Position numbers and translations under genes: made by a program. 37,913 nucleotides of DNA from an uncultured virus (IMG/VR IMGVR_UViG_3300047548_000491) (Duplodnaviria; Heunggongvirae; Uroviricota; Caudoviricetes): the IMG/VR virus record IMGVR_UViG_3300047548_000491, positions 62,001-99,913 of that record. One strand, given 5' to 3'. Positions within the stretch are counted from its first letter, which is position 1, and every line of letters begins with the position of its first letter. Below the pieces are notes generated by a model. The model searched no databases. It was not told the DNA's origin and saw nothing but the letters and a program-made list of their open reading frames with translations. Positions 6,096 through 37,913 of this stretch are shown here, piece after piece.

Positions 6096-6322
6096 TTGAT
6101 TTTACATCTTCACAGTTGAGTTGGATACTCATCGGTGCTTGTAGTATCGGTGGCACCGGTTATATTACCATTGATAACAAAATCAATGATATGGACGTAA
6201 AAATGGCAATAGTTCAAACTAAAGCTGATGCAACTGAGAAGAAGTTGAATGAAATGGCTGTTCAATTAGACAGGGTTGAACAACTGTTAATAGCACAAAA
6301 TACGAAAAAAGGATCACGATAA
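6092..6322 (+). CDS. Small membrane-anchored coiled-coil protein
   Basis: N-terminal hydrophobic segment WILIGACSIGGTGYITI followed by heptads; ATGA and TAATG overlaps with neighbours. Confidence 0.65.
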   Translation: MIDFTSSQLSWILIGACSIGGTGYITIDNKINDMDVKMAIVQTKADATEKKLNEMAVQLDRVEQLLIAQNTKKGSR

Positions 6323-8517
6323 TGGATTTTAGAAATATGTTACAATCGTTAACCTCATTAGCTGAAGGTGAAACAAAAGATACCAAGACTGGTCGTGTAC
6401 ATAAAGGCAGTTATGGTACTTCTTATGACGGTGACGATGATAAAAAAGAAAAGAAACCTGAAGTAAAGCGTGGTCGTGGCCGCCCTAAAAAGGACGCAGG
6501 TGAAGACGGCGAAGTAAAGAAATATGATACTAAAGGTCTACATGATGTGTTCGGTGGCGGTAAGAAACCTAAGAAAGAAGTCGGCAAGACTTCTAAGAAA
6601 CACTCATTAAAAGAATACATTGAAGAAGTTGCTGATAGCAAAACTCAGTTAGATGAGGCAGAGCAGATTACTATTCAACCTGCACAACAAAATACACAGG
6701 TCATCAAGCAAGGTAATAAGACATTAGGTACAGTTACTAACCCACAATTAGCTCAGCAAATTAAGCAGTCAATAGGTAAGGGTGAAATGTCTTTAGCCGG
6801 TGATGAGTTAACTGACGAAGGTGTAATGGACACCATGAAGAAAGCAGGTTCTGCTGTTTTGAATAAATTAGGTCACGGTAGTGATGCTGAATTATTGAAG
6901 AAGTTACAAAAACAAGCCGGCGCGCAAAATGCACAAGTTCACGGTAAGCCATCGATGGCATCTTCTAATACACAAAAGCCTGTAACAGAAAAAGCTCCTG
7001 AAGGTTGGGAAGGTACAGTTAAAGCGATGAAGAAGCACAAGGATGAGATTGATAATCCTTGGGCTCTAGCACACTACATGAAGAACAAAGGTTATAAGAG
7101 TCATAAAAAGGCTGAAGAGATGACTGAATCTTTTAAAATGGAAGACGGCTCTCTTTTGACTGAGGGTTCTTTAAGAAGTTTAGTTCTCTGTTTGATGGAT
7201 GATCTAAGAAATGGTCCTGAAGGTTATAATATCTTACCTGCAGTAGAAATGCAAGATCGTGCAAAAGCACAGCGAACAATTGATAAAGTATTACAGCACG
7301 GTGATCGTTATAAGCGTTTAGCTGGAACATTAAAAGGTCATTTACGTGATGCTGCCTTAGAAGAATTTGGATTCACAGACTATGATGCCAGCTTAGAAGA
7401 AGCAGACACACGTCCTGAGCCAGAACTATTAGCACCTGTTCCTAGCAAAGAAGCGTTTAGAACTACTGGAATGGATAGCAAATTAGGCAATCCTAAAGAG
7501 TTTGTTCCTAGTAGAACGCAAGCTCCTGCAGCAAAGCCTGGTATTTTCAGAGCAGCTGGGTCAGTAGCTAGCAAATTAAATCCATTCAGAAAACTCGGAG
7601 AAAATAAAGAAATGAAAGATACTCAATTAGAAAGCTGGGAACAGCATTTAAATTCATTATTAAATGAAGGTATTACTGTTACTAGCAGTACTGGACAGCA
7701 AGGCTCCCCAGACTCAGTGAGTATAAATGCCACAGACACTGACGCACAAGAATTATTAGCAATTGTAAGACAAGCTGGTCTAGGTGTTTTTGGTAATCAA
7801 GAACAAGAGGTTAGTGATTACGGTGCTCCAATGAGTACTGGAAGTGAAGAACCAGCAGGACATGGAACAGACCCTGAGGTTTCACCTACTGTAGTTGGCG
7901 ACGGTGACGATATGATGGCATTAATCAAAAAAATGACAGGTATTGACACGAGTGGTTCTGAAGACTATGCTGATGAAGAAGGTGAAGAAACACACACATT
8001 AGAACCTGCAGATTCTGATGAAAGTGAAGATGACACAGAAGAAAAAACTGATGAAGGTAATGCTTTCACCGGTGCCTTAGCAAAAGCAAAAGCTGATGGT
8101 GTGCAGCCCGGTGAAAAAATGAAAGTTGGTGGAAAAGAATATCCTGTCAAAGAAGAAGATGAAGTCGAAGAAGGTAACAAGTTTACTGGTAATTTAGCAA
8201 AAGCACGTGCCGCTGGAAAGAAAGAAGCTGACTTAGACGGCGACGGCGACATGGAAAAAGTGCATGAGGGTGAACATACTTGCAATGAATGTGGAATGTA
8301 TGAGTCACAATGCGGTTGCGAAGAGCCTGTTGAAGAAGGATTCTCAAACGATGCGGGCGGTGACGCAATGGCCGATACAGAAATGGCAAAGTTAAAAGCA
8401 CTCCTATCAATGGGAAATGATCTACACAAATTAAAAAGAAATCAAACTGTAGGTAACCCCACGCAAGTTGCATTTGAATCACAAATAAATGACTGGAAGA
8501 AGTTAAGCGGTCTGTAA
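6322..8517 (+). CDS. Large charged modular protein, probable prohead core/internal (poly)protein
   Basis: 731 aa, Glu/Lys-rich; many (L/V/M)xE junctions; AT-hook KRGRGRPKK; duplicated EGNxFTGxLAKA module; CNEC..CGC motif. Confidence 0.6.
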   Translation: MDFRNMLQSLTSLAEGETKDTKTGRVHKGSYGTSYDGDDDKKEKKPEVKRGRGRPKKDAGEDGEVKKYDTKGLHDVFGGGKKPKKEVGKTSKKHSLKEYIEEVADSKTQLDEAEQITIQPAQQNTQVIKQGNKTLGTVTNPQLAQQIKQSIGKGEMSLAGDELTDEGVMDTMKKAGSAVLNKLGHGSDAELLKKLQKQAGAQNAQVHGKPSMASSNTQKPVTEKAPEGWEGTVKAMKKHKDEIDNPWALAHYMKNKGYKSHKKAEEMTESFKMEDGSLLTEGSLRSLVLCLMDDLRNGPEGYNILPAVEMQDRAKAQRTIDKVLQHGDRYKRLAGTLKGHLRDAALEEFGFTDYDASLEEADTRPEPELLAPVPSKEAFRTTGMDSKLGNPKEFVPSRTQAPAAKPGIFRAAGSVASKLNPFRKLGENKEMKDTQLESWEQHLNSLLNEGITVTSSTGQQGSPDSVSINATDTDAQELLAIVRQAGLGVFGNQEQEVSDYGAPMSTGSEEPAGHGTDPEVSPTVVGDGDDMMALIKKMTGIDTSGSEDYADEEGEETHTLEPADSDESEDDTEEKTDEGNAFTGALAKAKADGVQPGEKMKVGGKEYPVKEEDEVEEGNKFTGNLAKARAAGKKEADLDGDGDMEKVHEGEHTCNECGMYESQCGCEEPVEEGFSNDAGGDAMADTEMAKLKALLSMGNDLHKLKRNQTVGNPTQVAFESQINDWKKLSGL

Positions 8518-27557: not shown

Positions 27558-28678
27558 AAATTCAAACACTATTAGAAGCTGCTGGACAAGTTGGGCGTAA
27601 GTATCAACACATTGAAGATTTAGTAATAGCTAATGGTAGTGCAGGTGGACTACATGCAGTTGAACGCATGAAGCACATGGTTGACAATTACGATTCAATT
27701 GAACTTAAGTGGGACGGTATGCCAGTAGTATACTGGGGCCGTGATGAAAAAGGTGTCTTTAGAATGATTCCTAAGAATGCTTGGGCTTACTTAAAGTCAG
27801 GCAAGACACAAACTAGTTCAGGTGCAAGTACAATCATGAACAGCCCCGATGACGTTTATAAATTTGTTATGGGCACAGGAGACGGTGGAGAAGGTCGTGC
27901 AGGATTTGCAAAGCAATTTGCTAGCTTGTGGCCACTGTTCGAAAAGATAAGCCCTAAGCAAGGCTTCCTTGAAGGTGGTTTATTATTCTTCCCTGGTTCA
28001 ATGCCTGTAGTTAATAAAAACACAAATACATACGATTTCAAACCTAATATTACTACATTCCATGTACCAGTAGATAGCAATTTGGGTAAGCGCATTGCTA
28101 ATGCTAAGATGATGGTTGCTGCCACTGGTTACTATACACAGATGGGTTCAAGTGATGAACAGCGTTATCCGGATGCACAGAAACTAAGCACACCTGATGT
28201 TATTGTACAAGGCACAACGTATGTTGAAGAAATGCCAGGTGTTAGCACAGCAGGTCTAGACAGAATTGAACAGTTCATAAGGACAAACGCTCAAAAAATT
28301 GACAACTACTTAGCACCTAAGAAGGGATTAAGTAATCCAGGTGGTGAGTTATACACTTATCTAAATAAACATTTACGCACAACAGGTCTGTTGAAAGACT
28401 TTCCTGCTTGGGCACAACAGAATTTAAGTGCAGGTAAAGCACAAGCAATGTTAGCAGATACTGAAGGGTTAAAAGCTACATTGGGAGCAGTAGAAGCATT
28501 GTCTAATGAAAAGATGAAGATTATCAAGTCATTAAGTTTGGGACTTCACGGTGGTATCATGCAAACTAATCCTGAAGGATACGCACAAGCACATCCTGAG
28601 ATTAATTTCAAGTATGATCTGCCTGGACAATTCTTAAAACTTATTGACCAACTAAATTGGAAGCCAAGAGCATTATGA
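27554..28678 (+). CDS. ATP-dependent ligase-fold-like protein (DUF6267-like) with leader MKIQTLLE
   Basis: HIED, motif I-like ELKWDG (K at 27707), motif III-like LEGGLL, FKPN.TT, motif IV-like PEGY, and C-terminal LKLID. Confidence 0.6.
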   Translation: MKIQTLLEAAGQVGRKYQHIEDLVIANGSAGGLHAVERMKHMVDNYDSIELKWDGMPVVYWGRDEKGVFRMIPKNAWAYLKSGKTQTSSGASTIMNSPDDVYKFVMGTGDGGEGRAGFAKQFASLWPLFEKISPKQGFLEGGLLFFPGSMPVVNKNTNTYDFKPNITTFHVPVDSNLGKRIANAKMMVAATGYYTQMGSSDEQRYPDAQKLSTPDVIVQGTTYVEEMPGVSTAGLDRIEQFIRTNAQKIDNYLAPKKGLSNPGGELYTYLNKHLRTTGLLKDFPAWAQQNLSAGKAQAMLADTEGLKATLGAVEALSNEKMKIIKSLSLGLHGGIMQTNPEGYAQAHPEINFKYDLPGQFLKLIDQLNWKPRAL

Positions 28679-30519
28679 AACGTACAGGGAACAGCAAAGT
28701 AGCAGTAGTAGGTTGGGGCCGTGGAATGGGCCATACTGGTCATATGTATCTAGCTGATGCAGTGATTCAACAAGCGGCCGATATGAAAGCTGACCCTTAT
28801 TTCTTTATTAGCAAAACAGTTGGTAAAGATGATCCCATCTATCCAGAAGAAAAAGTAAAAATCTATCAAGCTGTATTCCCTAAATACGCAAACATCTTCA
28901 TGCCTCAAGGTAACTTGAATCAAGCGTTAACAGACTTATCTCAATTAGGTTATGACGGTGTCGTAGTTGTCGTCGGTGCAGATCAAAAACAAGCATTTCA
29001 ATACTTAGAGAAACCAAACAAAGAAGGTGTACCTGTATACCAAACAATGGGATTCAAAAAGCTAAGAGTTATTAGTAGACAAGAAACCCGTAGTAAGTTT
29101 GCCAATGAAGAAGGCCCTCGTGCTACTCCAATGCGTGAGATTCTAATGAATCCAAATGCAAGTGAAGAAGATAAATTTGCAGTATGGCGTAGAGACATGC
29201 CAAAGAATTTACCTGATAAACAAGTGTTAGACTTGATGCAAAAAGCAGAACAGCGCATGAGAGCTATTCCAGTTAAGAATAAGAAACTTAAAGAGTTCAT
29301 TACTAAATTACGTCCATTGCTTAAAGAAGCGAACACAGCACAAAGATTGAAAGTGTTAAAGTTAATCAAAGAATCAATGGCACACAAAATTGATGAGACA
29401 TTAAATAGAGATGGATATCATGTTAGCGTACAGAAAGGCAAGTTTATGCCTAGTAAGTTCGGAGAAGATAATTATAACTATTTACATGACTTAATGAATA
29501 GCAGCGAAAGCAGCGGTAGCCCTATGTTAGTCACCATTGATGATAAGAAACTTGCACGTGAAATTGCTGCAATGTACGGCGCTGATGTAGAAGAAACTGG
29601 TTTAGGAACATATAGAATTGTTCAAAGAAAAGGCTCAACACCACAACAAGTTAAGACACCAGAGTTATCCACTGTAAATGAATTCGCACCCAGTGATGAT
29701 AAAAGACCAGATGCTGAATATGAAGTATATCTATGTTCAGGATTAGACGACCAATTTAAGTGGGAAGGTGATCCACTATTACGCACAAATAACTTAGGCA
29801 AAGCACACACTGTTGCTTATGAACTATGGAAAAAACATCCCAACAGAATGTTTATGATTTGGCAAGACAAGACTCAAGGTAGTCGCGGTGGATATGGACC
29901 TAAGGGGTCTGTTCTTGAACCTAGTGAAGAAGAATTGAATGAATTTGCAGCAGGTGGTGATTTCAAACCACCTGCTCCCCCAAAACAAAAAAGTAACGAT
30001 CCTTGGGGCAATGATGACCGTAGCAAGATTATACAAGCAGTTGGGCAATTATTAAAAGCCGGTAACAAAGTAGATTGGAAAGTCCCGGGACAAATGGGAC
30101 ATGTTGTTAGAGTTAGTGATGACAGCGTAACAATGAAGCGTTGGGGCAAACCGTATAGCAAGATCCATTATTCGTTGATGCTTACAGACGACCAAGATGA
30201 CAAATATGAAATTCAACTGGTCAAACCCGGCTATTACAAAGTTGTCACTTCAGATCCTGATTGGCAATTAGATGAAGGTCCATACGAGTATCAGCCACCG
30301 GGAGCCGGTGCTGCACAGACAAATAATGTACTGCGTCAAATGAACCAAAATTCAGGTAAGTTTGTTTGGAAAAAGCCAAACCAAATCGGTGGAAGTTTTA
30401 CTGAACAAGAATTATTATCAAAAGGTTTTAAGAAATCACAATATAATTCTTGGGGCGGAACACAAGAAATGTGGAACCGTCTACTAAACATACGTGAAGA
30501 TTACCTAGACGAAAAATAA
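28675..30519 (+). CDS. HxGH (cytidyltransferase/NadD-like) nucleotidyltransferase fused to a chain of small C-terminal modules
   Basis: VVGWGRGMGHTGH (HTGH at 28732-28743), DDPI, VVVVGADQ, RATPMRE; ATGA coupling to upstream gene gives start 28675. Confidence 0.75.
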   Translation: MKRTGNSKVAVVGWGRGMGHTGHMYLADAVIQQAADMKADPYFFISKTVGKDDPIYPEEKVKIYQAVFPKYANIFMPQGNLNQALTDLSQLGYDGVVVVVGADQKQAFQYLEKPNKEGVPVYQTMGFKKLRVISRQETRSKFANEEGPRATPMREILMNPNASEEDKFAVWRRDMPKNLPDKQVLDLMQKAEQRMRAIPVKNKKLKEFITKLRPLLKEANTAQRLKVLKLIKESMAHKIDETLNRDGYHVSVQKGKFMPSKFGEDNYNYLHDLMNSSESSGSPMLVTIDDKKLAREIAAMYGADVEETGLGTYRIVQRKGSTPQQVKTPELSTVNEFAPSDDKRPDAEYEVYLCSGLDDQFKWEGDPLLRTNNLGKAHTVAYELWKKHPNRMFMIWQDKTQGSRGGYGPKGSVLEPSEEELNEFAAGGDFKPPAPPKQKSNDPWGNDDRSKIIQAVGQLLKAGNKVDWKVPGQMGHVVRVSDDSVTMKRWGKPYSKIHYSLMLTDDQDDKYEIQLVKPGYYKVVTSDPDWQLDEGPYEYQPPGAGAAQTNNVLRQMNQNSGKFVWKKPNQIGGSFTEQELLSKGFKKSQYNSWGGTQEMWNRLLNIREDYLDEK

Positions 30520-36650: not shown

Positions 36651-36658
36651 GATAAATA
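36651..36658 (+). promoter_or_regulatory. Putative late promoter GATAAATA
   Basis: Motif after terminator, upstream of GGA and ATG at 36679. Confidence 0.7.
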
Positions 36659-36678: not shown

Positions 36679-37913
36679 ATGAAAATAACCTCACTTTTAG
36701 AAGCAATGACGACCCCCGGGAGCGATCCGGCATCTAATCAGAGCCAACAAGCACCTAGGTTTGGTCGTGATCCTCATGTTTTAGAAGATGATGAAAAATT
36801 AGATGAAACTACTACATCAGGGGCGGTAGCATCAGTAGCCCAACCAATGGGAGCTATGCAACGCCGTGGAAAAGGTAGTATATTTTCGGGTGTAAAAACT
36901 AGCAAAAAATTTCCTAATAGCCAAGCTGTAAAAGAAGATGTAAATGAGGCTAAGGTTGAAGAAGTTAATCCTGTTGTAAATGCTATTGCACGCCGAATTC
37001 TTGGCCAACGTATGGATTTATTGAAAAAATATGGACCTAAGTACGTAATGCAAGCAATTGATGATGTGTCTGATTCAGTCGGAGAAGTACAAGAAATAGG
37101 TTCAAGCGATGTGAGTGGTTGGGTAATTCAAGTAGAACGTAACTTGAAAAATAAACTTAATCAGTATGATAAACCAATGAGTGTGATAGATAATATTGAA
37201 GAAGCACAGAAATGTCCGCATTGCAACGGTCCTATGTTCAGCGATTTATTGTTAGCTGAAAAGAAAGATGCTTGCTATCACAAAGTTCGCAGTCGCTACA
37301 AAGTATGGCCAAGTGCTTATGCATCGGGTGCATTAGTTCAGTGCCGTAAAAAAGGTGCTGCTAACTGGGGCAACAAGAGCAAGAACGAAGGTGTGGCGGA
37401 AGGCAAGGAAGACAAGGTTAAGCAACTAAAGCAAGATTATGCTACAGCAGTTCATTGGAGTAAGAATGATACCAATCCGCATAAGCGTGAGGCTGCTCGT
37501 CAAAAGGCTGAAAAGATTAAGCGTCATTTAGAAACACAATACAAACAAGGTGTGGCGGAGGCGGCTGGATTATATGGTCCTTTCACCGTAACCATCAACA
37601 CAGGTGAGCGTCCTAAATCAAGAACAAAAACCAAAAAGTTCCGTCGTGAAGATGATGCTATATTGTGGGCACAAGATTGGTTAGAAGATTTTTCACAATA
37701 CCCATATGCCTCGGCCGAAGTCACAGATCCAGATGGCAATGTTGTTTGGACAACTGATGAAGAAGATAGTCCATGGGCACCTGCAAAACAGCAAGGTGTG
37801 GCGGAAGAAATAATTCATGTAGGTCATCGTAATTCAAAAGGTGATTGGGTTAAGACTAGCACACATAGTAACTATGCTGATGCAGAAGCCGCAATGAAAG
37901 AATTAGAAAGACA
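36679..37913 (+). CDS. Modular polyprotein-like ORF, 3'-truncated (at least 411 codons), absent from the ORF track
   Basis: Manual translation is open from MKITSLLEAM to the window end; modules separated by xxE and (Q/E)GVAE junctions. Confidence 0.9.
   Translation, partial: MKITSLLEAMTTPGSDPASNQSQQAPRFGRDPHVLEDDEKLDETTTSGAVASVAQPMGAMQRRGKGSIFSGVKTSKKFPNSQAVKEDVNEAKVEEVNPVVNAIARRILGQRMDLLKKYGPKYVMQAIDDVSDSVGEVQEIGSSDVSGWVIQVERNLKNKLNQYDKPMSVIDNIEEAQKCPHCNGPMFSDLLLAEKKDACYHKVRSRYKVWPSAYASGALVQCRKKGAANWGNKSKNEGVAEGKEDKVKQLKQDYATAVHWSKNDTNPHKREAARQKAEKIKRHLETQYKQGVAEAAGLYGPFTVTINTGERPKSRTKTKKFRREDDAILWAQDWLEDFSQYPYASAEVTDPDGNVVWTTDEEDSPWAPAKQQGVAEEIIHVGHRNSKGDWVKTSTHSNYADAEAAMKELER
37388..37805 (+). 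repeat. Three identical 13-bp direct repeats AAGGTGTGGCGGA separated by unrelated in-frame spacers
   Basis: Copies at 37388-37400, 37547-37559 and 37793-37805; periods 159 and 246 nt. Confidence 0.95.

Follow-up and report, generated by a model that had tools for sequence, protein, structure and literature searches.

The window, a stretch of 37,913 nucleotides from an uncultured virus, ends inside an open reading frame of 411 aa that is still open at the contig end. This frame carries three exact copies of the 13-mer AAGGTGTGGCGGA, with periods of 159 and 246 nt, all of which read G-V-A-E in frame (Table 1). Allowing up to two mismatches gave four matches; 100 shuffles averaged 0.34, and four was never reached. 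The 99.9-kb record contains these three exact 13-mers and no others, and GVAE peptides likewise occur only at these three places. A previous sequence-only reading had listed the three in-frame copies and their periods, and the exact positions and the shuffle control confirm them. It had also described the intervening segments as unrelated, which holds (best E 0.058, profile probability 0.2%), and GTG and GCG as locally rare codons, which agrees with their use in the genes of the window (85 of 741 Val codons and 54 of 841 Ala codons, respectively). The ATAAATA sequence located 5' of the gene has a weak resemblance to the T4 late promoter; it is not enriched before leader-bearing genes (2/7 vs 21/114).

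Table 1. Features of the repeat-bearing gene at the end of the window.
Feature	Position	Strand	Basis
ATAAATA 5' of the gene (weak candidate)	36652..36658	+	sequence
Putative modular polyprotein gene, cut by the contig end	36679..37913	+	ORF
Capsid-targeting-like leader MKITSLLE, hydrophobic-x-Glu end	36679..36702	+	leader statistics
Basic Cys-containing module (KDACYHKV...), common to cyanophage cluster T4-GC119	37261..37386	+	S-SSM5 comparison; phrog_727
Repeat 1 (E-G-V-A-E)	37388..37400	+	exact 13-mer
Module 1, 49 aa, basic	37402..37548	+	recurrence at other loci
Repeat 2 (Q-G-V-A-E)	37547..37559	+	exact 13-mer
Module 2, 78 aa, net acidic	37561..37794	+	predicted fold; recurrence at other loci
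Repeat 3 (Q-G-V-A-E)	37793..37805	+	exact 13-mer
Start of module 3a (68 aa in all)	37807..37913	+	recurs separately from 3b in other phages

Record G001 matches the last 668 nt of the window without differences and holds a fourth copy of the repeat 411 nt beyond the third, the G001 contig stopping 2 nt past it. Thus, the array runs beyond the window edge, as had been predicted. Past this edge come, in order, a G-M-M-E joint, module 3b (65 aa) and repeat 4, and with G001 the host protein comprises no fewer than six modules in at least 513 aa. The G-M-M-E between modules 3a and 3b is probably a decayed joint; the same joint carries the canonical repeat in one relative. Record G006 shares an overlap of 118 identical nt with G001, and its frame stays open for 597 aa. 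If G006 is the continuation, for which the 118-nt overlap is the evidence, the host gene is probably about 1071 aa long. Since one contig of the probable source run covers repeats 1 to 3 with zero differences, and two 151-nt pieces from another study cover repeats 2 and 3, the array is considered to be no assembly chimera.

The genes of G001 include those for a gp21-type protease and a gp23-type capsid protein as well as scaffold-like ones. The protease (L245:1366-1998, minus strand) matches PF03420 (E 8e-29) and adjoins the gp23 capsid gene (PF07068); PF03420 was matched in 4 of 5 records. The closest proteases from cultured phages belong to Phosso, Atu_ph07 and PA5oct (53-62%), and the exact repeat is absent from all five cultured relatives chosen by protease, namely these three, SCTP-2 and Vibrio 2.275.O. 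Most of the stretch is found in runs from freshwater metagenomes, which may be its source. More than 100 viral contigs have modules joined by the repeat, in a wide variety of genes, and the 14-nt form of the repeat was found at at least 134 loci in IMG/VR. Among the matches listed, 157 of 171 distinct ones fall within an ORF of at least 100 aa in the GVAE frame, there are 119 distinct gene starts, the repeat is always on the coding strand and the median spacing is 73 codons; most loci were chosen by motif, and relatives are not independent. The exact 13-mer is absent from all 79 non-self loci to which the N-terminal region of the gene led, mostly via the KDACY module. On these sequence comparisons, the repeat is restricted to one clade. 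As a raw count, the repeat lies within 300 nt of a contig end in 16 of the 80 loci L001-L080.

Module exchange at the repeat

Across 126 array pieces, the free end of the alignment falls at the repeat in both partners in 72 of 323 cases, with 0.7 expected, a count to which the common repeat contributes by itself attracting ends. For alignments of at least 92% identity, 16 of 23 ends lie at the repeat. Base -3 tracks the upstream module (52 pairs sharing the upstream module only) and base +11 tracks the downstream module (39 pairs), which places the crossover inside the 13-mer.

Modules 1, 2, 3a and 3b are each found in other genes beside other neighbours, and identical junctions recur in several records. 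Module 1 recurs at 22 non-self loci, which belong to several unrelated host genes and at most of which the repeat flanks it. The profile of module 2 gave 34 protein clusters at E <=1e-10 among 40 matches; these have 34 different upstream contexts, with the linker on both sides in 22 of the 34. A run from another study holds a copy of module 2 with 1 difference in 262 nt and the repeat at both borders; the start of the gene that holds it has 24 differences in 146 nt. Two orthologues with 65% identical N-termini, L075 and L363, harbor one exact repeat and seven exact and near-exact repeats, respectively, with different modules in a different order. One clean empty/filled pair was found at 781 sites, in which the filled form has a 195-nt insert and one extra repeat. 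The proposal that modules are gained, lost and reordered at the repeat was thus borne out by alignment ends, orthologues, the empty/filled pair and recurrence: searched singly, modules reappear in other genes, and module order differs between orthologues. Of the outcomes named beforehand as refuting the sequence-only reading, those examined here did not occur. There is very little doubt that it is at the repeat DNA that modules enter and leave genes and pass from one gene or phage to another.

Neither a well-supported deletion joint within the phage's own population nor a circular cassette intermediate was seen among the contigs; joints in which one side had at most 22 letters, which amount to a match to the repeat alone, were not counted as excisions. 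A single contig (L131/L132) holds two copies of a 50-codon module that are 99% identical but differ in their neighbours. Paralogues of module 2 that form a diverged family (P0025-P0034) have the same linkers.

Constraint on the repeat as DNA and as peptide

The 13-bp repeat had been called invariant. The three window copies are indeed identical, but the repeat varies across the clade, where single-change variants are common and the conserved stretch around it tapers over ~17 nt. At four-fold silent sites compared with the window, 10 of 91 differ in the linkers and 90 of 237 in the adjacent modules (19 homologues), a count that favours the linkers, since 5 of the 38 were omitted for exceeding 3 mismatches. 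The set consists of homologues of modules 1 and 2 from a protein search, with redundant loci dropped. In the protein-selected set for modules 1 and 2, 28 of 47 distinct junctions are GVAE, of which 19 are written GGT GTG GCG. The same codons are used by 19 of 26 GVAE peptides in four other genomes, or 15 of 22 minus the selected site per genome, against an expectation of 0.3-1%, as counted by hand on tiles of these genomes, with G003 partial and one duplicated ORF removed. The suspected constraint at the DNA level is thus supported by silent-site and codon counts in protein-selected sets. The base after the Glu codon is G in 215 of 227 repeats, compared with 346 of 917 other hydrophobic-x-Glu sites, whatever residue begins there. 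Within-genome homogenisation of variants is not supported, GTA neighbours being present for 3 of 61 GTA sites and 5 of 134 canonical ones; among doubly variant neighbour pairs, 4 of 24 match (1.2 expected, P 0.03).

In L328, L329 and L317, some modules are flanked on both sides by the same variant repeat, overall weakly above chance. In G003, 463 identical codons occur twice (175624-179142 and 523177-524565), one copy lying at a contig end, which is probably assembly redundancy; the duplicated ORF also holds a tandem E-G-V-A-E-G-V-A-E.

At the peptide level, 425 distinct sites with up to 3 mismatches keep Glu in 418 cases and V, M, L or I two residues earlier in 423; 97 sites from the variant scan are excluded from this set, and many of its canonical sites came from the first scan. 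The G>A changes at these sites give Glu>Lys 4 times, Gly>Asp 22 times, Val>Met 27 times and Ala>Thr 16 times. Glu>Asp was not seen at all, versus 48 silent GAA>GAG changes. Joints without the repeat likewise end in hydrophobic-x-Glu. In T4, the gp21 motif is given as L/I-x-E, and Asp blocks processing of the leader (PMC9026906). The suggestion that V-A-E is a protease site stands in so far as the hydrophobic-x-Glu pattern is under protein-level selection, but Val falls outside the quoted T4 motif. Leaders ending in hydrophobic-x-Glu were found in 46 of 119 repeat-bearing genes vs 69 of 1120 others (P 6e-21), and the target gene begins MKITSLLE, a leader assigned by pattern. As judged from these substitution patterns, the repeat is constrained at both the DNA and the protein level, and the head-maturation protease probably cuts the modules apart at the repeat.

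Cargo, exchange machinery and rival explanations

On balance, we favour a capsid-cargo polyprotein of a giant T4-type phage that would be shuffled by short-homology recombination at a joint which is also the cut site. The N-terminal leader is likely to load the polyprotein into the prohead. In the head, as the selection on the joints suggests and with good probability, the gp21-type protease would cut after V-A-E and other hydrophobic-x-Glu joints, freeing peptides of 50-130 residues that are probably delivered with the DNA. Modules are gained, lost and moved at the joint DNA by crossover within the 13-mer. Exchange would fairly probably proceed through the phage's general recombination, of the UvsX, gp32, gp46/47 and UvsW type, on 13-17 nt of exact homology and with no integrase. 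Recombinants are expected to be viable because exchange inside the repeat preserves the reading frame and retains a cut site to either side. Modules with canonical repeats would have the most exchange partners, so that the repeat stays uniform across the clade while unused copies decay silently. One sequence serving as crossover and protease site would let modules enter head-targeted genes with frame, targeting and release intact, and would extend the T4 scheme of one gene for one internal protein to shuffled polyproteins. Splitting at the repeat would then give hundreds of candidates for injected proteins, mostly unannotated and each with defined ends, that could be screened for anti-defence activity.

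The modules themselves reveal little of their role by homology. No significant Pfam or PHROGs family was found for modules 1-3, no Pfam family for the target protein and no match in PADLOC. Module 2 is predicted to be a β-β-α-β-β mini-domain (pLDDT 78) and module 3a to be β-β-α-β (pLDDT 71). The best fold match of module 2 reached Z 5.3 (T4 antitoxin Dmd, rmsd 2.3 over 54) and that of module 3a Z 4.6; no viral structure matched the modules at E 0.001, and the best ESM Atlas scores, 0.85 and 0.75, were to unnamed clusters. All fold scores are within background, and no function was therefore assigned from the folds. One continuous fold across the junctions is disfavoured because the modules change neighbours freely. 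A Pfam scan of 71 of the 81 listed array proteins left 54 of the 71 without a family; the others include DUF6321 (9), GP88 (2), deaminase (2), and single matches to ParB-N, SutA-RBD, DUF6934 and DUF5661.

It is somewhat unlikely that the modules, once cut and packaged, act in the head as DNA-binding, charge-balancing or core-filling peptides rather than as injected proteins against host defence, with shuffling that is largely neutral. Such a role would suit the Lys/Arg richness of module 1 (13 K+R, 7 D+E), module 3b and the cyanophage-type modules, the contact of T4 internal-protein lysines with packaged DNA (PMC3012670), and arrays in which most proteins lack a Pfam family and DUF6321 is the commonest match. 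However, module 2 is acidic and predicted to be folded, the arrays also hold GP88, deaminase and ParB-N domains, and rapid exchange fits host conflict, as T4 Ip1-3 each block a different GmrSD (PMC12373910). By likeness to Ip1-3, the cargo may have an anti-defence function, a tentative assignment that is nearly an even call.

It is unlikely that this clade of freshwater giant phages possesses a dedicated in-frame cassette system, in which the polyprotein would be the same and an unrecognised phage or host recombinase or nicking endonuclease would read the 13-17-nt site and insert or excise cassettes. The dominance of one sequence in phages whose core proteins are 30-80% identical would be expected of such an enzyme, as would the sharp repeat edges, the G kept after the Glu codon and the scarcity of genome-specific homogenisation of variants; a single clade-wide sequence fits protein recognition as well as homology. 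If true, the enzyme would capture coding DNA into any capsid-targeted gene, with the same letters acting as protease site, and the clade would share, as a common library, hundreds of injected mini-proteins directed at host defences. Against this, eight repeat-bearing records, three of them at least 90% complete, contained no tyrosine or serine recombinase, reverse transcriptase, Y1 or IS110 transposase or Cas1, and gave no match to PF00589, PF00239, PF07508, PF00078, PF01797 or PF01867. PF00589 was found in 0 of the 8 records versus 14 of 14 controls; most of the records are incomplete, and a host-encoded enzyme is possible. A weak match that had been a candidate IS110 transposase turned out to be a ROK-family gene. 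RecA/UvsX was found in 6 of 8 records. None of four repeats forms a hairpin (top-strand z -0.65 to 0.89), and the motif is without dyad symmetry.

Cellular origins of the motif were also considered. A host Chi-like site was rejected, as the 6-7-mers of the repeat show no consistent excess outside arrays in four genomes. The 12-mer resembles the 5' end of bacterial tRNA-Leu; among 143 tRNAs in the phage records (phage tRNAs only), none holds the 12-mer with fewer than 2 mismatches, and a tRNA origin was rejected. The same applies to a cellular attachment site: across 185,579 prokaryote genomes, the 20-nt form occurs in 6 places, five of them single and one a three-copy contig resembling phage DNA, with no cellular repeat family. 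Locus L491, with three in-frame repeats, lies on a contig binned as a lake Bacteroidetes genome and is probably mis-binned phage DNA rather than a pointer to the host. In T4, recombination takes place at microhomologies of 6-10 bp (PMC9391042), and whole genes are shuffled at PeSL repeats with no dedicated enzyme known (PMC2839356). General short-homology recombination is thus favoured, given these precedents and because no enzyme, hairpin, cellular counterpart or Chi-like excess was found.

It is highly improbable that the repeat is a recombination joint which merely encodes a tolerated flexible linker in a protein that stays whole: DNA constraint by itself would preserve most of the peptide, but missense change is frequent at Gly and Ala, near-absent at Glu and hydrophobic-only at Val, silent change of the Glu codon is free, and repeat-less joints end in hydrophobic-x-Glu as well. 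Finally, mosaic arrays created as chimeras by the assembler can be virtually dismissed, since contigs often end near the repeat (the 16 of 80 loci above, and G001 at 2 nt) but independent contigs with long unique flanks cross the junctions, also in another study, the same junctions occur in several records, and frames are open at 157 of 171 sites. Caution is needed as such genes are clustered or annotated as single hypothetical proteins, and assemblies tend to break there.

Relation to known systems

The T4 internal proteins appear to be the system that works most like this polyprotein. IPI-III and Alt likewise have a short N-terminal hydrophobic-x-Glu leader, a gp21-type protease and small variable cargo (PMC9026906, PMC3012670, PMC12373910). 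T4 encodes one small internal protein per gene whereas many modules are chained here in one frame, and an internal DNA repeat at the predicted cut sites is present only here. The PeSL of the T4-type phages RB49 and phi1 is also alike, as a conserved repeated linker at the borders of exchanged units with no known dedicated recombinase; it is ~100 bp long, intergenic, comprises a promoter and a stem-loop, and moves whole genes, with mini-circles shown (PMC2839356). In contrast, the joint described here is 13-17 nt, coding, in frame and without a stable fold. The polyprotein resembles T4 internal proteins with PeSL-type shuffling and is a member of neither family.

Integrons have an integrase, hairpin-forming cassette sites, exchangeable cassettes and circular intermediates. 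The arrays share with them an exchangeable series of cassettes with a repeated site between, whereas the cassettes here are in-frame domains without a start or stop of their own. The integron-like array of the sequence-only reading did not hold in the mechanistic sense, as no integrase, other recombinase or hairpin was found. Integron identity was likewise rejected: no tyrosine integrase was found in the eight records, there is no hairpin, and the cassettes form one open frame rather than separate genes.

Polyvalent proteins also join disparate domains in one chain, are thought to be delivered with the DNA and are sometimes proteolytically released (PMC5512222). They are built on MPTase, ArdC and similar domains, none of which is present in the target or the 71 array proteins, and the account given includes no conserved DNA joint (PMC5512222). 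The KDACY module is 68% identical over 59 aa to the S-SSM5 member of T4-GC119, the member through which the target was found to share modules with this cluster. T4-GC119 likewise has KDACY, KCW..VPNC and DUF6321 modules and variable length; unlike the polyprotein, it lacks the repeat, and it is described as a hypothetical or structural protein (PMC3037559). In Table S8 of that paper, it has 13 peptides in the first proteome column, read as S-SM1 virions from other rows, and is undetected in the second phage encoding it (PMC3037559); this bears indirectly on packaging. In literature searched mostly outside subscription journals, we found no published account of this repeat, nor of any joint at which crossover and cutting coincide. 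Work by Repoila in 1994 on T-even internal-protein polymorphism may already cover exchange of whole ip genes mediated by repeats.

Elsewhere in the window, the gene at 6322-8517 is without GVAE modules, whereas its apparent homologues in L007 and L013 have GVAE-bounded modules. At 28657-30519, a cytidyltransferase-like N-terminus (phrog_3041) is followed by segments that start after V/L-N-E or L-D-E. This gene, in which the GVAE repeat is absent, likely encodes another polyprotein that is cut. In G006 (L478:10577-18084, minus strand), many of the genes located 3' of the probable continuation start with M-R/K-x-x-E-F-x-x-E. The run includes a ferritin-like protein, a GP88 protein that follows one repeat, and a GH19 lysozyme carrying a TAT-like stretch.
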